Shown piece after piece: positions 1-59,221 of a stretch of DNA of 64,000 nt. The translations under genes and the position numbers were made by a program. How positions within the stretch are numbered: position 1 is the stretch's first letter; each line of letters opens with the position of its first letter. The notes below the pieces were generated by a model that saw only the letters and a list, made by a program, of their open reading frames with translations, was not told the origin of the DNA and searched no databases. The DNA lies in NCBI RefSeq assembly GCF_004010195.1, contig NC_057727.1, forward strand, positions 43,732,740 through 43,796,739, read 5' to 3'. The DNA is from Chiloscyllium plagiosum (lineage: Eukaryota).

Positions 1-1190
1 ATTTTTTACAAACCCACCGATTCCCACAGCTACCTGGATTACACCTCTTCCCACCCTGTCTCTTGCAAAAATGCCATCCCGTATTCCCAATTCCTCCGCC
101 TCCGCTGTATCTGCTCCCAGGAGGACCAGTTCCACCACAGAACACACCAGATGGCCTCCTTCTTTAGAGACCGCAATTTCCCTTCCCACGTGGTTAAAGA
201 TGCCCTCCAACGCATCTCGTCCACATCCCACACCTCTGCCCTCAGACCCACCCCTCCAACCGTAACAAGGACAGAACGCCCCTGGTGCTCACCTTCCACC
301 CTACCAACCTTCGCATAAACCAAATCATCTGCCGACATTTCCGTCATCTCCAAAAAGACTCCAACACCAGGGATATATTTCCCTCCCCACCGCTTTCCAC
401 AAAGACCGTTCCCTCCGTGACTACCTGGTCAGGTCCACGTCCCCCATACAACCTACCCTCCCATCCTGGCACTTTCCCCTGCCACTGCAGGAACTGTAAA
501 ACCTGCGCCCACACCTCCTCTCTCACCTCTATCCAAGGCCCTAAAGGAGCCTTCCACATCCAAAGTTTTACTTGCACATCCACCAATATCATTTATTGTA
601 TCCGTTGCTCCCGATGCAGTCTCCTCTACATTGGGGATTCTGGGCGCCTCCTAGCAGAGCGCTTTAGGGAACATCTCCGGGACAACCGCATCAATCAACC
701 ATACCACCCCGTGGCCCAACATTTCAACTCCCCCTCCCACTCTGCTGAGGACATGGAGGTCCTGGGCCTCCTTCACCGCCGCTCCCTCACCACCAGACAC
801 CTGGAGGAAGAATGCCTCATCTTTCACCTCTGAACACTTCAACCCCAGGGCATCAATGTGGACTTCAACAGTTTCCTCATTTCCCCTTCCCCCATCTCAC
901 CCTAGTTCCAAACCTCCAGCTCAGCACTGTCCATGACTTGTCCGGACTTGTCCTACCTGCCTATCTCCTTTTCCACCTATCCACTCCACCCTCTCCTCCC
1001 TGACCTATCACCTTCATCCCCTCCCCCACTCACCCATTGTACTCTATGCTACTTTCTCCCCATCCCCACCAGCTTATCTCAGGCTCACTGCCTTTATTCC
1101 TGAAGGGCTTTTGCCCGAAATGTCGATTTTGCTGCTCCTTAGATGCTGGCTGAACTGCTATGCTCTTCCAGCACCACTAATCCAGAACAT
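1..1190 (+). mobile_element. Penelope-like element (PLE) 3' part: RT thumb remnant, GIY-YIG endonuclease, 3' tail with degenerate hammerhead motif
   Basis: ORF 285-833 contains NIIYCIRCSRCSLLYIGDSGRLLAERFREH...HPVAQHFN, the Penelope GIY-YIG pattern; tail cctgaagggcttttgcccgaaatgtc near 1099-1124. Confidence 0.85.
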
Positions 1191-1796: not shown

Positions 1797-2435
1797 TAGA
1801 CCATAAGACCATAAGACATAGGAGTGGAAGTAAGGCCATTCGGCCCATCGAGTCCACTCCGCCATTCAATCATGGCTGATGCACATTTCAGCTCCACTTA
1901 CCAGCGTTCTCCCTGTAGCCCTTAATTTCTCTAGACAACAAGAATCTATCAATCTCGGCCTTGAAGACATTTAGCGTCCCGGCTTCCACTGCACTCCGTG
2001 GCAATGAATTCCACAGGCCCACCACTCTCTGGCTGAAGAAATGTCTCTGCATTTCTGTTCTGAAATGACCCCCTCTAATTCTAAGGCTGTGTCCACGGGT
2101 CCTAGTCTCCTCGTCTAACGGAAACAATTTCCTAGCATCCACCTTTTCCAAGCCATTTATTATTTTGTACGTCTCTATTAAGTCTCCCCTTAATCTTCTA
2201 AACTCCAACGAATACATCCCAGTATCCTCAGCCGTTCCTCATATGTTAGACCTGTCATTCCAGGGATCATCCGTGTGAATCTCCGCTGGACACGTTCCAG
2301 TGCCAGTATGTCCTTCCTGAGGTGTGGGGACCAAAACTGGACACAGTACTCCAAATGGGGCCTAACCAGAGCTTTATAAAGTCTTAGTAGTACATCTCTG
2401 CTATTATATTCCAACCCTCTTGAGATAAGAGACAA
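1797..2435 (-). mobile_element. CR1-clade LINE 3' end (ORF2 C-terminus, 3'UTR, short-repeat tail)
   Basis: LYKALVRPHLEYCVQFWSPHLRKDILALERVQRRFTRMIP / LRGDLIETYKI / FFSQRVVGLWNSLP; (ataagacc)n tail at ~1797-1820. Confidence 0.9.
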
Positions 2436-2444
2436 CAGAGAGAG

Positions 2445-3403
2445 ACAAGAAGACGAAGAAGAATTAGATACGAAGAAGAAGAAGACGACGAAGACGACGA
2501 CGAAGACGACGACGACGAAGACGACGACGAAGACGAAGACGACGATGAAGACGAAGACGAAGCAGAAGAAGACGATGAAGACGACAAAGACGACAAAGAC
2601 GACAAAGACGACAAAGACGACAAAGACGACAAAGACGACAAAGACGACAAAGACGACAAAGACGACAAAGACGACAAAGACGACAAAGACGACAAAGACG
2701 ACAAAGACGACAAAGACGACAAAGACGACAAAGACGACAAAGACGACAAAGACGACAAAGACGACAAAGACGACAAAGACGACAAAGACGACAAAGACGA
2801 CAAAGACGACAAAGACGACAAAGACGACAAAGACGACAAAGACGACAAAGACGACAAAGACGACAAAGACGACAAAGACGACAAAGACGACAAAGACGAC
2901 AAAGACGACAAAGACGACAAAGACGACAAAGACGACAAAGACGACAAAGACGACAAAGACGACAAAGACGACAAAGACGACAAAGACGACAAAGACGACA
3001 AAGACGACAAAGACGACAAAGACGACAAAGACGACAAAGACGACAAAGACGACAAAGACGACGACGCAGACGAAGAAGAAGGCGAAGACGAAGAAGACGA
3101 AGAAGACGAAGAAGACGAAGAAGACGAAGAATTAGAAGAAGAAGAAAAAGAAGAAAAAGAAGACGACGAAGACGACGAAGACGACGAAGAAGGAGACGAA
3201 GAAGAAGACAAAGAAGACAAAGAAGACAAAGAAGACAAAGAAGACAAAGAAGACAAAGAAGACAAAGAAGACAAAGAAGACAAAGAAGACAAAGAAGACA
3301 AAGAAGACAAAGAAGACAAAGAAGACAAAGAAGACAAAGAAGACAAAGAAGACAAAGAAGACAAAGAAGACAAAGAAGACAAAGAAGACAAAGAAGACAA
3401 AGA
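2445..3403. repeat. Purine-rich compound tandem repeat: (GACGACAAA)n ~2580-3057, (GAAGACAAA)n ~3203-3403, GAA/GAC triplet mosaic; ends at an N gap
   Basis: Directly visible 9-bp periodicity. Confidence 0.95.
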
Positions 3404-3419
3404 NNNNNNNNNNNNNNNN

Positions 3420-3533
3420 GAACGCTGGTAAGTGGAGCTGAAATGCGCATCAGCCATGATTGAATGACGGAGTGGACTCGATGGGCCGAATGGCCTTACT
3501 TCCACTCCTATGTCTTATGGTCTTATGGTCTTA
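3420..3533 (+). mobile_element. CR1 3' terminus, same family as 1797-2435 in opposite orientation
   Basis: Near-exact reverse complement of ~1800-1908, ending in (ggtcttat)n. Confidence 0.85.
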
Positions 3534-24900: not shown

Positions 24901-25429
24901 TATCTTTTTTTTAAATTCAGTTCCATTGAGTCAAACAAGTCCCACAGAAGGGCCATGGGCATTTTTAGCAATTCACTAAAATGATGTACAAACAATGAAT
25001 TGATTCAATTCACTTTCTATGGTAAAACAGATGCGTTTTACTATCAATATTTGAAACACACTCTCGCTTAATGACTTCTGCAGTATACAGTGCTACAGTA
25101 GCTGGAGAACAAACTTTGGTATTTCAATTACTGACAATTAATCTAATGTCAGTGGTAGGACAATTATTGGGAAGAAAAGGGATATGGTTAATCTATACTT
25201 TGAAGCAAGAATTGATTGAGGATAGTCATCATGGATTTGTGAATGTCTATTTGATTAATTTTAATTGTTTTTTTTGGAAAGATGACTTAAATATATTGAT
25301 AAAGGTAGTGCAGTTAATGTGGTTTGCATAGACTTCAGGAAGGTCTTTGATAAGATCGCACATTAGAAGGTTCATGGGATCGAAGGCAAGATAGCAACCT
25401 ATATCCAAAATTGGCCTCCAAATAGAAAG

Positions 25430-25644
25430 CTGAAAATGTGTTGCTGGAAAAGCGCAGCAGGTCAGGCAGCATCCAAGGAACAGGAGAATCGACGTTTCGG
25501 GCATAAGCCCTTCAGGAATTCCTGAAGAAGGGCTTATGCCCGAAACGTCGATTCTCCTGTTCCTTGGATGCTGCCTGACCTGTTGCGCTTTTCCAGCATC
25601 ACATTTTCAGCTCTGATCTCCAGCATCTGCAGTCCTCACTTTCT
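25430..25644. mobile_element. Palindromic PLE-tail element (family C), centre GAATTC, intact hammerhead motif on + strand
   Basis: 15-bp TSD cctccaaatagaaag (25415-25429, 25645-25659); CTGAAGA-A-GGGC-TTAT-GCCC-GAAA-CGTC at 25522-25549; left arm lacks 3 nt of the core. Confidence 0.85.
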
Positions 25645-25909
25645 CCTCCAAATAGAAAGAAAAGCGTGATGGTGAGGGTTGTTTTGTCTGGAAACCTGTG
25701 ACCAGCAGTATAACACAGGGATTGGTGCTACAACCCTTACTGTTTGTTATGTATATTAATAACTTAGATGTAAATGTAAAAGGTATAATTTAGTAAGTTT
25801 GCAGATGACAAAAATTGGTGTTGATTGTGTGAAGGATTGACTCAAGCTGAAGTCTGATATCGATCAGCTGGTAAATTGGGTAGAGCAATGGCAGATGGAA
25901 TTTAACTAG

Positions 25910-26835
25910 GAGAAATTGAGGACTGCAGCTGCTGCTGCTGGAGATCAGAGTTGTGGTGCTGGAAAAGCACAGAAGGTCAGGCTACATCCAAGGAGCAGGA
26001 GAAGCAATGTTTTGGGTAAAAGCCCTTCATCAGGAATGAGGCTTGTGGGGGACTGACAAATGGTAGGGGGGGGGGTGGGGCTGGAGGGGAAAGTAGCTGA
26101 GAATGCATCAGGTAGATAAAGGTGATAGGTTGGAGAGGAGGGTGGAGTGGATAGATGGGAAAGATGATGGACAAGTCAAGAGGGGTGCTGAGTTGGAGGT
26201 TTGGGATTGGGCTAAGGTGAGGCAGGGGAAATAGGAAACTGGTGAAATCACCATTAATCCCGTGTGTTTGCAGGGTCCCAAAGCGGAAGATGAGCCGTCC
26301 TTCCTCCAGGTGTTGAGTGGTTAGGGTTTGACAATGGAAGAGGCCCAGGACCTGCATGTCGTTGAACTGTTCCGCCATAGGGCGGTGTGGTTAGTTGGTG
26401 CACGTGTCCCAAAGATATTCTCTGAAACAATCCACAAGTTGGCGTTCTGCCTCCCTGATGTAGAGGAGACCACATTGGGTGCAACGGATATAGTAGATGA
26501 CATTTGTGGAGGTACAGGTAAATTTCTGTTTTACGTAGAAGGATTCTTTTGAGGCCTTGGACAGAGATGAGTGGGGAGGTGTGGGTGCAGGTTTTGCACT
26601 TCTTGTGGTGGCAGGGGATGGTGCCAGGAGAGGGGGCTGGCTGGGGCAGCGGTGGATCTGACGAGGAATGGTCTCTCTGAAACTCTGATAGGGGTGGGGA
26701 GGGAAATATATCCCTAGTGGTGGAAGTGGCAGAGGATGATGCAATGTATATAGAGGCTGGTGGGTGGAAGATGAGAGCTATGGACTTCTGCCCTTGTTGT
26801 GTTGAGGGTTGGAGTTAAAGGGCGGATGTGGATGA
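25910..26835 (-). mobile_element. Penelope-like element 3' part (GIY-YIG remnant plus tail)
   Basis: KFTCTSTNVIYYIRCTQCGLLYIREAERQLVDCFREYL and MQVLGLFHCQ...LEEGRLIFRFGTLQTHGINGDF; homologous to 285-1190. Confidence 0.85.
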
Positions 26836-28264
26836 GATGTGTTGGAATTTAATCCTGGTAAGTATGAGGTGACAAAGTTTGGGAGGCCTAATGAAGGAAG
26901 GATATACTCAATGAATGGTAGGTCCAGAGATAGTACTGACAAACAAAGGGATCTTGGTGTACATATCCATAGATCCCTGAATGTGTCAACACACAATGGT
27001 GCAGAAGACATAATGGACGCTTACTTTCATTAGCCAGGGTGAGAACATAAGAAGGAAGTCTTGTTTCAACATTATAAAACATTGATCAGGCCATAGATGG
27101 AATACTTCGTGCAGTTTTGGTTGCAAGAGTGTAGAGGAGATTCAACAGGATGTTGCCTGGGATGAAAAGTCTGAGTAATGAGAAGCTGGGTGGGCTCTGT
27201 TTGCTTTTCCTTGGATCAGAGGAGATTGAGATGGGATTCAATTGAAGTACACAAAGTTTACAGGCAAATAAAGGGTAGATTGTGAGAATTGTTGCCCGGT
27301 GGCAGATGTGACTAAGCTCTGAGTTCACAAGTTTAAGGTGAGAAGTAGTGGTTTAGGGAAAATCTGAGGAAAAAATGTTTTCACCCAGAAGGTGGTGGAA
27401 GTATGGAATATGCTGCCTGAGAGGGTGGTGGAGCCAGGTACACTCAACATTTAAGAAGCATCTGGAGGAACACTTAAGATGCCAAGGTATAGTAGACAAT
27501 GGATCAAGTGCAAGTAAATGAGATTAGTATAGTTTGGTTTAGATGTGGTGGGCCAAAGGACCTGTTTCTATGCTACATGAGTCTGACTCTATAACATTTG
27601 CCAAAACTCAATTAACAGAGTAGCCAAGATATTGTTGACTCATGGTCAGGCTGGACCTGAGCGCTTGCATTGCTCAGTGCAATATCAATAGTCTGGTGAG
27701 AGATATGATTTTATTGTGTACTTTTAGTATTTGGATATCAAATGCTAATGGTAGTTTTTGAAGAGTTTAAAAAAGGTCTGGGTCAGATTGACCTTTAAGA
27801 ACTGACCTAATCTTGTACCTGACCAAATGGGTGACAGCAACACCCTGGAGTGTTGAAGGACTAAGGTGTTTATTGATTACAATAGGTAGGATGAACATTT
27901 GAAGGTTGTTAGCTTGTTTACATTTCAAAATAATTAAGGATTTTCTTTAGTTTAGAAAATCTATAGATAGGAGCAGTTCAGAAGAGACCTGATTTGGATT
28001 TGGGAGAATGCATATTTGTCTCAGAAGACTTGGTTAATTTCTGTACTGCGTCTTTTGGTACACGCTGCTACTACGGAGCATTGTTGGTGGAGGAAGTGAA
28101 CATTTGTAGATGATTTTTTTTAATTTCAAAAATATACTTTGGCACCAAATTATTTTATGAATAATCAAATGAGCTGCTTTGTCCTGGGTGCTGTTGCACT
28201 GCACTCATCCAAGCAAGTGAGGCATATTCTATCACACTTCTGACATGTGCCTAGTAGATGATGG

Positions 28265-28362
28265 CTGAAAAATGTGTTGCTGGAAAAGCGCAGCAGGTCA
28301 GGCAGCATCCAAGGAGCAGGAGAATCGACTTTTCAGGCATAAGCCCTTCTTCAGGAATGCCT
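28265..28362 (-). mobile_element. Single-arm family C PLE-tail insertion
   Basis: Near-identical to the left arm of 57868-57959; flanked by direct repeat gatgatgg (28257-28264, 28363-28370). Confidence 0.75.
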
Positions 28363-40780: not shown

Positions 40781-42458
40781 CTGCTGTCAATTTTTAAAAA
40801 TTGACGACAAACTGGTGCTGTATACATTTATCCCAGATGAGGTAGACTGCATTTACTGATTCATAACATACTTCCACTTTGTTTTTCTAGCTGCTAAAAT
40901 TAAGAAAGATATTGATATCTCTGTACAATACTTCATTAGTTTGCTGTTTAATGCAAGTATCCCAATTGTCATGGCAAGACTGGATGACTTCTGACTGTAA
41001 ATTTCCATGCACTTAAGATAATTTTAAAGCTGGCAATACCCATGTACAATGCATTCTATGTACATAACATGACGGTTGCGTTTCTGCAACCTTGCGCTAT
41101 AGAAACTGCTATAAAAAAAATCACTAAACCCATTTCAGTAGGAAGTTCACATTATACAAACAGAGTCCACAATTCATCAGTTGTCATAGCCAATTCGAAT
41201 TGACAAAATGTGCATTATACCAGAATGACCTATACTACTTCCTTATTAGCACTGCCTATTTTTCACTTGAAAACATCACCTGACTTCACCTTTACTGAAA
41301 GGTTTACTCTTGTCTTTGGTATTCCATCTAACTCCACACTGTTTTGAGCTCATTCAAAGCTCTACCACCCCTATCCTTACTTGCACAAATTCCTGTTCAA
41401 TTACTGACCTTGTGCTTTTTTTGTATTAGTGTGGTTTTATGACCACTTGCATGAGTTTGGATTCACAATAGACTGCTCAAGAGAAAACAAGACCAGGTGT
41501 TATCTTTAGGCTTGGTCTTTTTAATAGACATTTTTTTTCACACATTCCGACTCAGTGCTATGATGCATGGGTATTCAGATATTTGCCAGATCTGTTGTTA
41601 TCTTCTGTTATTGGAAGCCTATTCCATAAATAATACACAATGCTAGTGAATGTACTTCACATGTTTCTAGATGTTTTCAAATCAACCCGATCAAAGATGT
41701 TATTGCACACTTCTAGAGCATGTGGGACTTGGACCCAGGTCTCCTATCTGAGAGGTAGAGATACCACCACTGTATGACAAAAGCCACTTGTTTCTCCCTC
41801 TGAATTATAACTCCTCCCCTTTGCTATTTATGCCTAGTGAGAATATCATTGCAAAATTGCATCAGGGTCTTAAAGTCTTTATGTTGGTTCTTAGTCAAGC
41901 AATATTTCCGTTTTAAAATTTTCACTTTTTAAAAAAAAAATTGCCATGGGCATAACTGCTGCTTTAACAAACTCCAGTTCCACAACTCTATCTGCACTGA
42001 CATCGTTCTGATCTTGAGCATTTTTTTTTATTTGTACTGTTCTAATAATGGTAACTGTCATAAAGGTAGGCCATTTGACTCCTTGAACCTGCTCAGCCGT
42101 TCAATAAGATAATAGCTGATTTAACTTGACATTCCCACCACTCTCAAAGTACATTTTTGAAATATATTAAAAAATTTCAATGACATTTCAACCCTGTCCA
42201 CCCCTGCTTATCAAGAACCTATTTATCTTTGCCTTAAGAACGGAGTCCCAAAGGCTCTTGACCATCTGTGAGAAAATATTTCTGTTCAGCCTTAAATAGA
42301 TGATCCCTTAATTTTAAAGTGACTCTGAATTCCAGGTTCTTCCATAAGAACTATCTTTTCTACGTCCACCTTTCCAGACTCTTCAGGAATTTGTGTGTTT
42401 CAATCAAGTTATGTTTTGCCCTTCTAACTCTCTGTCCTTCTCAACTCCAGTGGATACA

Positions 42459-42671
42459 TGATTTGGAGATGCTGGTGTTGGACTAGGTGTACAAAGTTAA
42501 AAATCACACAACACCAGGTTATAGTCCAACAGGTTTAATTGGAAGCACGCTAGCTTTCGGAGCATCCCTCCTTCATCAGGTGATAGTCACCTGATGAAGG
42601 AGCGATGCTCTGAAAGCTAATTTGCTTCCAATTAAACCTGTTGGACTATAACCTGGTGTTGTGAATTTTAA
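42459..42671. mobile_element. Palindromic element (family D) with a hammerhead motif on each strand
   Basis: 12-bp TSD ccagtggataca (42447-42458, 42672-42683); + strand CTGATGA-A-GGAGC-GAT-GCTCT-GAAA-GCTA (42591-42619); - strand counterpart 42579-42551; a collapsed relic of the family at ~36668-36785. Confidence 0.85.
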
Positions 42672-45600
42672 CCAGTGGATACAAGCCTAGCTATCTCCCC
42701 TTTCCTCATAACTTAATATTCACATTCCAGATATTAGTCTGGTAAATGTTCTCTGAAGCGATTCCAATGCATTTAGTTCCTTCCTTCGGCCGTAGTCAAG
42801 ATATGGTCTCCTCAAAGCCCTGTAAACCTGAATCATAAGTTTCTTTGTTTTGTATTCAGTTCTCTTTGGAATAAATGATAATATTTTGAGTTTTTTTAAT
42901 ACTCTGGACCTAAATCGTAATCATCGGTGATCCATACTCGGACACTGAGACCCAGGACCTCCATGATCTATATAATTTCTAAAAATTCTTCCTCAGAAAT
43001 GGATTACTTCACAATTTCCTGTCATGTACTCAACTTGCCAGGTCATTGGCTATTTGCTTAACCTATTGATGTGCCTTGTAGCCTCCTGATGTCCTTTTTA
43101 CAACTTATGTTCTTACCTATCTTTGAGGCACCCAATTTAGCAACTATATGTTTGGTTCCTACATCTAAGTCATTTGAAATAAATGTTAAGGAATTGACGA
43201 ACCAGCACTGCTACAGCTAATCTTTTATCAATGCCAATAAAGTACCCCTACACTATGATCTCTTATTTTCAGCAGTGACATTTATTGTGGAACATTATCA
43301 AATGTGTTCTGCAAATCTAAGTACATTTACCAGGTCCCCTTTATCTGAAGAACATGCTACTTATTCATAGAGCTCCAATTAGTAATTTAAATATGGTAAC
43401 TAGATGCTGAGCCTTTGGAGAATGCAACTGGGTATTAATAACAAAGAACAGGGAAATGGCAAAAATTTTGAACCAATGTCTTGCATTTGTTTTCATGGTG
43501 GATGATACTATAGATATCCTAAAGATAACAAATAAGTTCTATTGGGAGGCATGATCTTGTAGGCGTCTCTATCATGAAAGACAAATTATTTGACAAACTA
43601 ATGAAACTAAGGGCAGGCTAGTCACCAGGTTCTCTTTTCAAGAAGCAAGGGAGATAGAAAGCAAGAAACTATAGATTAATTAGCCTGACATTTGTTGAGA
43701 AAATGGGAATATGTGCTCAATCTCAATTTTTCTTTTATATTATTTCCAGAGATTTTTTATTTTGTTAGAAGATGCAACTACTTGGATTTATGTAGTGTTT
43801 GTATCTTCATGAAATGTTAGTTTCTTGCACAATTCATTCTATTTCCTGTACTTACTTCAGCAATTACTTTTCCAAACTATTTACTTGGCTGTGAAGCACT
43901 TTGGAACATCCTGAGTATGTGAAAGCCATTATGTAAATGAAAGATTTAAATAGGATCTAATTAAGATGTTGAACCCATGGTATTTGTATATTCCGAGATA
44001 TGCGCAATTATGGGATTTAAATCTTGACACACCTTTCCATCTCATATCTCCCAAGCAATATTATAATTTAAAAATGCAAGTGCTAAATTTTAATTACAAC
44101 TTTTTTCTGTTTTTAAAAAAAAATCCATCAAGTTCAACTAGTCTGTCCATTTTGATCCATATTAACTTTGTCACTCCCACCTTGTTGCAATATCCAAGCA
44201 ATACTCAAAAATATTTGTTGGATCTTAAAGCTGTTTATGTGTTGACCTGAATAGTTTTCCATATTTGTGTCACATTTCTTTTATGTATATATCTTGCTTA
44301 ACTTCTCTTTATTAATCTTGCTCAGTTTTAACTAGTTTTTTTTGTATTAACATTTTAAATGATTGTTGCTTTTCGTTCATGTATCCCAACTATTTTAGTC
44401 AATGTATACCAATTCTGCAGAGCAATTATATCATACAGCTTGCAATTTTGAGAAAGCTGGTTAGGATTTGAATCAATCCAATCTGTGTCATGGAATGTAT
44501 GAGACTAGCCACAGAAGACTGTCCCAACATCAATTTTGTGTTTGCATTGATTCCCATATAATTGAAATAGAGGGAGCTTTGGAAAGGTCTCAAATCAGGT
44601 AGACCATCAGTTAGTTGGCCTGCCTAGTGAATTATGATCTTAGGCCATTTTTGGCAAGGAGCTACCTGTCCTTTCTGCTCTTTGCTATTGTTTACAATTT
44701 GATCAAAATTTAGATACTTCCAAGGTTCCAAGTTATGAAGTTGAATTCAATCAACCTGATAATCTGAGCACACATCAGAAATACTGCAAAGCAACTGTAA
44801 CTCCTTATATGCTAGACTATAGATATACTTTTAATATAAAAATTGTTATAATTAATTAAATGAACTGGAATTCAGATTTTAGAAAGTCTGATATTTTCAG
44901 CACACACTTGAAAACAATATAAACAATATATGTAAAAATAGCAAATTGAACATTTGACCTTTAGGCAAAATTTTAAGAAACAATTAATTTATAACTTATT
45001 TAGTTTTAAAACTGGGTTTGTAAAATGTTATGTTGTTGAAAGGAAACCGTCACTTTTTCTTGATGTGATTAAGGTCAACAAGTTATTACTTCAGCGCCAT
45101 GTTCTTGACTTTAAATTAGTGCCCACATTGTTATTCAAAATTGAATTTATCATGTTGGAATTCACTGAAGTCTGGAGATGTTAGATCATTCATAGATCAT
45201 ACTTTTAAAATACCATATATAGCTGCAGATCACTAGGACTCTTGTGGCACAGTGCTAGTGCCCATGTGTTTGAGTCAGGAGGGCTGGATTTAAATCCCAT
45301 TTGCTCCAGAGGTGTGTAATAACATTTTTGAATACAATAATTAAAAATATTTATTCCAGGTCAAAACAAAGTCAATATTTTCAATATTTTTTATGTTAAC
45401 ACAGTCCATGCATCTGTCCCTCCTAATAATAAATGTAACTAATAAGCAGAGCAAAATTTATCATTGAATGGGGTATGATGCTAACAGGCTGAGTAACTTG
45501 GTTCTGATGTGGTACCTGTAATATAACAGAACTCTTAATGTTCTTTTCAACTCCCTGCACCAGGAAACAAATTCTGCAAGGCTTACCTTAGGTGTATGAC

Positions 45601-56920: not shown

Positions 56921-57828
56921 CCTTTCACTCCAGGTCTTGGAAGGTTTTCGAGAACATTCGCTTGGCAGCCTAACCTCAAACTGATTAGGGCAAAGCATTT
57001 ACGATGTAAATATTAGTCTTTCTGTACGTGTTAATAGTGGAGTTGGGGGAACATGTTCATTCCGATTTTTATTGGGATCATTAACTCTTCGCTGGGAAGG
57101 GATGTGACGACAGAAGTACTGTGATTATTGACCTAGTTGGAAATTGACTTGGCTACTGAATTTGAAGTTACCCCTCTGAGTTTCCAGACAGTCTCCCCAA
57201 CATTTTCTTCCCAGCCACTTAAATTGGCGCAAAACGCTGCAGCCCTGCAACTTCATGAAACGTTCTGAAACCCCCTTGAGATGCAAAAATAACAGGAATA
57301 GCTAAAGGGATTGTCTGAATGGGGAAACGGAGGGAGGAATGCATTAAGCCCACAGTTCATGGTAACCGAAGGGGTCATGTGGTTGCTATTTTCAAAACGG
57401 GATACGTGCACATGTGCCTGCAGGAATTCAAAGATTGCTTGAAGACCTTATCAAAGAAAAATAGGCATGATTCATATAGAAACGACGATTTTTCCGCATT
57501 AATGTAGATTGTAAATTTGGTAATTGGAACAATTAGATCCAAATTTGGATAACACCAGTCACATCAGCAGATGAGACTGTTTTGGTTGTCTCTGGCATAC
57601 ACAAAGGATGCCCATGGGAGCACTGTCCTCAAGATGGTGCACTTCACTGGAAGTGACTGCCAGAAAAGCACACAGCCACAACCACCCCCCGCCCCCCACT
57701 CCCGGCCCCCCAGCCTCAGAGTGAACCAAGCAACAGAATCATGATTTTCTGATCTTGTTTCAACATTTTGGGGTATTAGAAAGGAACTTGGAACGTAATT
57801 CTTTCTGAATTGGCCCTCATTTTTATCT

Positions 57829-58052
57829 TCGAGAGAAAGTGAGGGCTGCAGATGCTGGAGATCAGAGCTGAAAATGTGTTGCTGGAAAAGCGCAGCAGGT
57901 CAGGCAGCATCCAAGGAACAGGAGAATCGACGTTTCGGGCATAAGCCCTTCTTCAGGAATTCCTGAAGAAGGGCTTATGCCCGAAACGTCGATTCTCCTG
58001 TTCCTTGGATGCTGCCTGACCTGCTGCGCTTTTCCAGCAACACATTTTCAGA
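57829..58052. mobile_element. Family C element containing a perfect 184-bp spacerless palindrome (57868-58051) with two intact hammerhead motifs
   Basis: 14-bp TSD cctcatttttatct (57815-57828, 58053-58066); CTGAAGAAGGGCTTATGCCCGAAACGTC at 57963-57990 (+) and 57956-57929 (-). Confidence 0.9.
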
Positions 58053-58394
58053 CCTCATTTTTATCTGCTTTATTGTTTCCACCAGGAATGGCTCCAGGTG
58101 GGTAGAGAGTATCTGAGTCACAACAGACAAGCCTTTATGGGACAAACTGGGTGAACCACTGGTCTTTTGTGCTTTACTGTCTGGAGTAAATAATTTGGGG
58201 TGAACTCCATTTACATTGTGCAGCTCTACAGGAAGCTAAATCCCCAATGGGGAAGGGTCATATGCTTTCCTGTTGACAAGGGGCAGAACGCAGGAAGATA
58301 CTATTATCCTCACAGTTTACAACTATGTTCAATATCAAGGGCTCAATCACAATTGACATTATGATACATGATGCTCTAATTTCTCTGTAGGTAT

Positions 58395-59221
58395 TGTAGG
58401 ACTTTGGCTCAATCTACCAACTTACTTTTTTCTATGTGAGAGCCCAGTCCTGCCGTGTTCTTTAAATGAAGCAATAGGAGAAGATATTCAATCTCACACT
58501 CTTAATTTATTTTAAACAGTAAGTGGACAAAGTATACAGAGCTCTGGGTCTAGATCTTTCCGTCCCTGACAAACTACAAAGTGTGTCAGTTCAAAAAGTA
58601 AGACCTATTCCTGTCCCTGACCCAGTCTTTTATACAATAAAAAACGTCATGCAATCAGTGAGGTAGAATTATCTTCTGATTGGCTGTTGATCTGACTCCA
58701 TTCTCCGCCTCCCCGTGTTCCCGGATGTCCGACCCCACGTGACCTTCTTTTGCCCGCGAAACGGAGCACCACATCACCTCCTTCGGCCTGCGAAACGGAG
58801 CACCACGTGACCTCCTTCGGCCCGCGAAACGGAGCACCATGTGACCTCCTCGCCCGCGAAACGGAGCACCACGTGACCTCCTTCGGCCTGCGAAACGGAG
58901 CACCACGTAACCTCCTTCGGCCTGCGAAACGGAGCACCACGTGACCTCCTTCGTCCCGTGAAACGGAGCACCACGTGACCTCCTCGCTCGCGAAACAGAG
59001 CAGCACGTGACCTCCTTCGGTCCGCGAAACAGAGCACCACGTGACCTCCTCGCCCTCGAAACAGAGCACCACGTGACCTCCTCGCACTCTTCCGGGTCGC
59101 CAAACAGAGCATCACGTGACCTCCTGCGCACGTTACACAGCATCACCACAGGCTTCCGAATGCAGAGTATATTTACACTCACAGCCAGCCTTCTATTTTA
59201 CAAGTAAGCCATATATTTACA
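58395..59221 (-). mobile_element. ERV 3' LTR (~830 bp)
   Basis: TGTA...TACA termini (left end 58395 or 58386); PPT AAAAGGGGGACT just upstream; CCAAT (58679-58683), TATAAAA (58628-58634), AATAAA (58506-58511) in correct order on the minus strand. Confidence 0.8.
58735..59125. repeat. U3 tandem array, 11-12 units of 32-34 bp (cacgtgacctccttcggcccgcgaaacggagcac)
   Basis: Directly visible units. Confidence 0.92.

Follow-up and report, generated by a model that had tools for sequence, protein, structure and literature searches.

The window, i.e. the whole 64-kb stretch of DNA analysed here, carries a 224-bp insertion at 57829-58052, with identical 14-bp direct repeats (CCTCATTTTTATCT) on either side (57815-57828 and 58053-58066). 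A direct sequence check confirmed the 14-bp target-site duplication (TSD) and the perfect 184-bp palindrome that the initial annotation had described; the palindrome (57868-58051) consists of two 92-nt arms without a spacer. The insert is the pLTR of a Penelope-like element (PLE), present twice and head-to-head. When the arms are numbered from the A of ATTCCTGAAG (+1), an arm spanning +1..+93 is joined to an arm spanning +1..+133 and the two overlap at AT. This 2-nt overlap forms the centre of the palindrome, and the 39 unpaired nt at 57829-57867 are the known PLE tail; neither was part of the initial annotation. The features of the insert are:

57815-57828, plus strand: left TSD, 14 bp, exact match to 58053-58066
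57829-57960, minus strand: long (tailed) arm, pLTR +1..+133, with one base fewer than the family reference near +128
57829-57867, minus strand: 39-nt PLE tail, the unpaired part of the insert, between two putative reverse transcriptase (RT) start sites
57925-57960, minus strand: minimal type-I hammerhead motif of the long arm (+1..+36), predicted cut after 57929 (by inspection against the available text of PMC4209133)
57959-57960, no strand: head-to-head junction, AT microhomology common to both arms, each of which starts at +1 (gap -2)
57959-57994, plus strand: minimal type-I hammerhead motif of the short arm, predicted cut after 57990 (by sequence inspection)
57959-58051, plus strand: short arm, pLTR +1..+93 (by sequence comparison)
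58052, plus strand: single base A that matches neither the template nor the target copy, either untemplated or a mutated 15th TSD base
58053-58066, plus strand: right TSD, exact match to 57815-57828

The last 4 nt (3') of the left TSD equal template positions +134..+137 (AGAT) and are likely to be priming microhomology. The tail is placed between two RT start sites because the arm ends are bimodal (about +93 and +129) in 73 pairs. The exact 30-nt centre of the palindrome occurs at 696 loci genome-wide and a reversed control at none, so the centre is not a product of chance. Folding supports the suggestion that transcripts across 57868-58051 could form a hairpin of about 92 bp.

The hammerhead motif that had been read on each strand, composed of CUGAAGA, an extra A, GGGC(UUAU)GCCC, GAAA, CG and UC, is present by inspection (on the plus strand with the core at 57963-57969 and GUC at 57988-57990). 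It contains the elements of the Penelope-type minimal hammerhead as described in the available text of PMC4209133, namely the core CUGANGA / GAAA / UH, helix II, a palindromic helix III and a short helix I. The latter, which the initial annotation lacked, is formed by the first four bases (AUUC against GAUU, with one U-U mismatch in the insert at 57829-58052), and is perfect (AUUC/GAAU) in subfamily B. Copies of this subfamily (e.g. L004 and L011) are the youngest, with 0.4% arm-arm divergence, and combine the perfect 4-bp helix I with a covaried helix II loop. Judged by these features, subfamily B would be the best candidate for an active hammerhead. Since an Rfam scan (E ≤ 1) matched no hammerhead and returned only sub-threshold miRNA hairpin matches, the hammerhead was assigned by inspecting the sequence for the published features of the minimal type. 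The predicted minimum-energy folds of the monomer and of the cofolded dimer are not the hammerhead structure.

The near-identical copy reported at 25430-25644 was recovered with the same GAATTC centre and its own 15-bp TSD (25415-25429 and 25645-25659). Its palindrome is imperfect, as 3 nt are missing from one arm. It is listed as:

25415-25659, no strand: independent insertion of the same kind as 57829-58052, short arm left, tailed arm right, 15-bp TSD

Further loci of the window carry hammerhead arms or PLE remnants. A lone short-type arm of the young family lies at 28256-28358. A second, unrelated PLE family with the same anatomy (head-to-head hammerhead arms, one of them tailed) and a 12-bp TSD (CCAGTGGATACA) is found at 42458-42681; its core word has 38,149 matches in the genome in a search with a final-letter filter. 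An older head-to-head pair with 91% complementary arms lies at 1413-1600; its core is degenerate and CUGAUGA-like, and it apparently belongs to a third family. At 300-1177 (plus strand) and about 25910-26730 (minus strand) there are older PLE copies, truncated at the 5' end, that retain GIY-YIG remnants and a pLTR. The window also contains a 9-bp tandem array (2362-3500) and a 32-34-bp minisatellite (58701-59128).

The arms are the pLTR of an autonomous, endonuclease-positive (EN+) PLE, with the EN upstream and the ORF continuing downstream. A C-terminal GIY-YIG domain (PF01541, E=1e-4) lies directly upstream of the pLTR in a sister copy, and a young arm has the same EN tail upstream. Downstream, the young pLTR runs past +130 and enters the beginning of the ORF, with an ATG at about +168 followed by RT motifs; in a young copy that continues into the ORF, RVT_1 was detected with E=5.6e-4, below the curated cut-off. 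In two long loci of the sister subfamily the pLTRs are about 3.4 kb apart, i.e. in the partial tandem arrangement of EN+ PLEs, and the one-end tail of 30-40 bp, the inverted 5'-truncated copy and the TSD of such elements are present as well. A PLE tail of 30-40 bp on one end is described in PMC3846280 and PMC8557442 (here and below, statements taken from cited papers refer to the portions of these texts available to us). No intact full ORF was readable in the copies examined, and the central ORF of the long copies consists of N. The sister copy at 300-830 of the window has a CX4CxxC linker (CHCRNCKTC). A CX2-5CxxC linker before the EN is part of the motif definition of Neptune and Nematis (PMC8557442), and the linker thus points to a parent PLE belonging to the Neptune or Nematis clade. 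Head-to-tail arrays of pLTR and ORF start with a period of about 205-225 bp were observed elsewhere in the genome (G000:C1:26.52 Mb, L174/L175, and G000:C2:96929344-96929791); they carry a hammerhead in every unit and are retrozyme-like.

The initial annotation had interpreted the insert as a mobile palindromic cassette, i.e. a non-autonomous unit that is transcribed and mobilised as a whole by Penelope RT, and had named differing junctions between genomic copies as a reason to abandon this view. The junctions do differ. Genome-wide, the hammerhead word was counted 98,095 times, and the GAATTC centre is found in 1,392 of these arms (1.4%). The 100 matches listed derive from 82 short insertions, comprising 48 head-to-head pairs and 34 single arms, in a sample from which the final-letter filter left out copies with native upstream sequence. 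The 48 pairs, which were not selected by their centre, fall into 32 junction classes (based on BLAST ends, a few of which are imprecise), none of them with GAATTC; 28 junctions show microhomology, 18 filler and 2 are blunt. Other microhomology centres, such as GC (7/48) and GAA (5/48), recur as often as GAATTC or more often. The GAATTC centre itself is found in several subfamilies of different age, with the diagnostic bases of each subfamily in both arms, and later mutations are specific to one arm: 148 rare variants are confined to a single arm and 18 are shared by both (6,193 sites), so the arms mutate independently after insertion. Although the exact GAATTC centre and both arm ends are common to 696 loci, as a cassette would predict, the constant internal structure of a SINE- or MITE-like unit was not found. 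Given the low share of the centre, the varied junctions and the recurrence across subfamilies, the palindrome is not moved as a whole; the involvement of Penelope machinery stands, and whole-unit transcription and mobilisation is barely credible. Later gene conversion between arms was also considered and is rare (148 against 18 variants as above, and no symmetric pairs among the 100 matches listed). Extrapolation from 48 pairs per 100 matches listed suggests roughly 25,000 copies of two-stub inserts.

To describe the 3' ends, arms were classified as short (+88..102) or tailed (+124..142). After de-duplication 107 pairs were available, of which 79 have two classifiable 3' ends and 28 include a truncated or ORF-continuing arm; the arms were called on a subfamily-A reference (≥ 86% identity), and some B arms were possibly left out. 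Laxer scoring with more loci yields 120 pairs. The loci were sampled according to 5' patterns, and most of them lie within the first megabases of contig C1. A short arm is combined with a tailed arm in 75 of the 79 classifiable pairs, the unmixed combinations accounting for two pairs each. As single arms comprise 67 tailed and 56 short ones, about 50% of mixed pairs would be expected (binomial p=1.5e-18). A TSD of at least 9 nt (one mismatch allowed) flanks 73 of the 75 mixed pairs, with a length of 13-16 nt in 63 of them and a mode of 15 bp, and the TSD ends of the 75 mixed pairs are biased to T/C and G/AG, toward the next template bases. The unrelated second PLE family of the same genome behaves alike, with 11 mixed pairs among 12 classifiable ones (16 pairs in total). 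No stable fold was predicted at the RT start sites (z=+0.47).

These two classes of arm ends match the two internal RT start sites of an anole PLE. In vitro, this element extends both target strands from two internal sites that bound the tail, on an uncut RNA template, and its protein is predicted to be a dimer (PMC11167929). Neither start site was preferred by strand there, and pairing lies outside that test (PMC11167929). What our data would add is that each target strand takes a different RT start site.

Self-priming has been proposed for PLEs in PMC3846280: the cDNA would fold back at the 5' end and copy itself into the second arm. Microhomology at 28 of the 48 junctions is compatible with such a route, as are the palindromes at inverted junctions in the available descriptions of rotifer PLEs and a symmetric private deletion (locus L005, discussed below). 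However, in 34 of the 54 untied pairs it is the short arm that reaches beyond the tailed arm on the 5' side (the 21 ties are mostly loci selected for GAATTC), and a copy can neither extend 5' of its source strand nor add a tail, which largely refutes fold-back as the sole route. Moreover, the short arm has a fixed end, a regular TSD and target microhomology, and it is also found alone (56 short and 67 tailed single arms). We regard self-priming as quite improbable.

Both arms of a pair generally belong to the same subfamily (71 of the 74 typed pairs, versus 23% expected), with an arm-arm divergence of 0.4-12% across subfamilies. Two of the three discordant pairs differ by single transitions and the third is a pair of two tailed arms without TSD. 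This agreement does not prove that both arms come from a single RNA, because the subfamilies have different ages and were active in turn. Double priming could also take place on two RNAs held as a hammerhead dimer through the self-complementary ACGU of helix III, one RNA per RT subunit, and subfamilies active at different times would give the same agreement. Minimal PLE hammerheads are indeed thought to act as dimers (PMC4209133), and since the arms cover the same RNA interval, a single RNA would need strand displacement. At locus L005 (G000:C1:31161768-31161861), an 8-nt deletion from the hammerhead cut site is present in both arms and nowhere else in the genome. We counted it for a single template (n=1); it favours one template and also fits fold-back or later correction. 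It speaks against two RNAs, as do the low number of discordant pairs (3/74) and the hammerhead mutants without effect on insertion in vitro (PMC11167929), and we consider a two-RNA dimer unlikely.

At the other end, the arms cluster at +1. Genome counts by 5' reach decrease from 98,095 (to +4) and 64,114 (to +1) to 46,721 (to -1) and 26,794 (to -4, counted without subfamily B), and about 6 in 100 arms among the matches listed end within the next 14 nt beyond -4. It would be wrong to state that all copies stop at +1, as more than a quarter of the arms read through the site. The cluster is accompanied by a position-specific extra G: on the cDNA strand, the base after +1 is C in 10,277 cases versus A or T in 7,116 (34 A among 100 matches listed), and the ratio of C to T after -1 is 1,971:1,680. 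Among 30 extra-C cases inspected, the C may be the partner arm's first base in 10, about 7 lie within target microhomology and several are clearly untemplated. In full-length L1 insertions, the cap leaves its signature as an extra G (PMC11702581). From the 5' pile-up and the extra G specific to +1 we infer that the transcript is capped and begins at +1, where helix I of the hammerhead also begins. The sequence TCATTC, which includes +1, resembles an initiator. Penelope of D. virilis has an internal promoter with an initiator (PMC2377424).

In raw RNA reads from two runs, no position was found where many molecules begin. One run contained 3,060 reads in both directions, 95% of which extend into unlike flank, with no common start or end; the second contained none. 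These reads fit passive read-through and are uninformative on the start site. The pile-up could alternatively mark a structural RT stop or a processing site at the 5' edge of the hammerhead in a longer RNA, all else being as in our preferred explanation. Apart from the RNA start not being seen in raw reads, this is in line with the second PLE family, which likewise stops a few bases upstream of its core, and with an intron end of D. virilis that maps to the start of helix I (PMC4209133). Against this, the extra G occurs specifically at +1, +1 is not preceded by an AG acceptor, and over a quarter of the arms pass the site untroubled; an RT would moreover be expected to stall when entering the structure from the 3' side, not when leaving it. 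We therefore hold an RT stop or processing site to be very improbable.

None of the 100 matches listed (of 110,708) starts at the hammerhead cut and one starts at +32. RNA cut by the hammerhead was rejected as template on this basis, and the template RNA would be uncut. No genomic footprint of hammerhead cleavage was found in arm starts or cut-site deletions among the matches listed. Deletions at the cut site, seen at two loci, had been considered as a footprint of cleavage in vivo and were dropped, as there is no clear excess: about 8 such deletions compare with about 75 point changes at the site among 100 matches listed. Most of the changes at the cut site among the matches listed have TC microhomology.

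Taken together, the insert quite likely arose de novo where it now lies, through double target-primed reverse transcription in which a single short stretch of PLE RNA was copied. The PLE mRNA would be capped and start at +1 (TC-A-TTCC), with the hammerhead as its first 36 nt, uncut in the template. Within the 5' pLTR copy, the RT-EN would bind its two internal start sites, at about +93 and +130, and cut the target with a stagger of 14-15 nt. Microhomology of 1-4 nt would let the two target 3' ends prime at different sites, and both cDNAs would reach the 5' end of the RNA within about 95-130 nt and run off it, in many cases with a copy of the cap. Finally, the cDNA ends would be joined via microhomology or filler; joining at AT without loss would result in the perfect palindrome at 57868-58051. 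The two-stub insert is probably a dead-end by-product. The arm anatomy, the TSDs of about 15 bp, the short/tailed pairing, the 5' pile-up at +1 and the variable microhomology junctions are direct observations. Counted against this explanation are the raw reads, in which no RNA start at +1 was seen, the 34 of 82 short insertions with one arm, the 10 of 30 extra-C cases derivable from the partner arm and the 28 of 107 pairs with an unclassifiable 3' end, together with the missing strand preference of the anole start sites (PMC11167929) and the sampling of loci described above.

We lean, by a modest margin, towards a more general reading in which the stubs record PLE integration genome-wide. A single capped mRNA that begins with an uncut hammerhead of 36 nt would serve a dimeric RT-endonuclease as template, and each end of a 15-nt staggered cut would be primed at its own fixed site on this mRNA. 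Short 'strong-stop' products of binding to the 5' pLTR would then make up most insertions in these families, and the same reaction would account for the tail and inverted pLTR in all PLEs. Taken by itself, the insert is an unremarkable member of a population of tens of thousands of Penelope stubs. For the open question of why PLEs carry an inverted pLTR and a tail on one side only, the stub population yields precise predictions: each target strand would use one start site, the stagger would be 14-15 nt, the RNA would be capped and begin at the first base of the hammerhead, and cleavage would not be needed. It would also imply many perfect hairpins of about 90 bp in host transcripts.

A literature search (outside Dfam, Repbase and most subscription journals) returned no paper on solo short and tailed palindromic stubs, a paired two-site mechanism or a PLE cap signature. 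The EN+ PLE insertions described in PMC3846280, PMC8557442 and PMC8969392 are alike in their head-to-head inverted pLTR, one-end tail and TSD, and in their GIY-YIG and RT parent and hammerhead in the pLTR. In the available text of these papers the inverted pLTR flanks ORF-bearing or tandem copies and is attributed to self-priming or EN resolution, whereas here the whole insert consists of two pLTR stubs. The rotifer examples have TSDs of 8-10 bp, compared to 14-15 bp and a fixed 5' edge here. Poseidon PAc of Anolis carolinensis shares the two tail-bounding RT sites, the extension of both strands in vitro and the uncut template (PMC11167929). The available text of that paper contains no model of inverted insertions and does not assign the sites to strands, and the ORF of PAc starts in hammerhead stem II, while the ATG lies at about +168 here (PMC11167929). 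Unlike PAc, the parent PLE here is Neptune/Nematis-like in its CX4CxxC linker.

Minimal hammerheads of metazoan PLEs are alike in the loopless palindromic helix III, the extra base after position 9 and the short helix I, and Schistosoma has dual hammerhead motifs 100-700 bp apart on opposite strands (PMC4209133). In comparison with those hammerheads, helix II is only 4 bp here and the predicted motif is located at the putative first base of the transcript. Non-LTR retrozymes (bioRxiv 10.64898/2026.07.22.740005) are likewise non-coding, pLTR-derived and hammerhead-bearing; they are head-to-tail tandems, whereas the insert at 57829-58052 is head-to-head and no listed arm starts at the cut. An inverted pLTR with tail is an already known type of structure, of which we describe a further family with unusually clear statistics. 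In L1 twin priming, both target strands also prime and an internal microhomology junction is formed, and the two parts cover different RNA intervals, whereas the two arms described here are copied from fixed start sites over one and the same interval.
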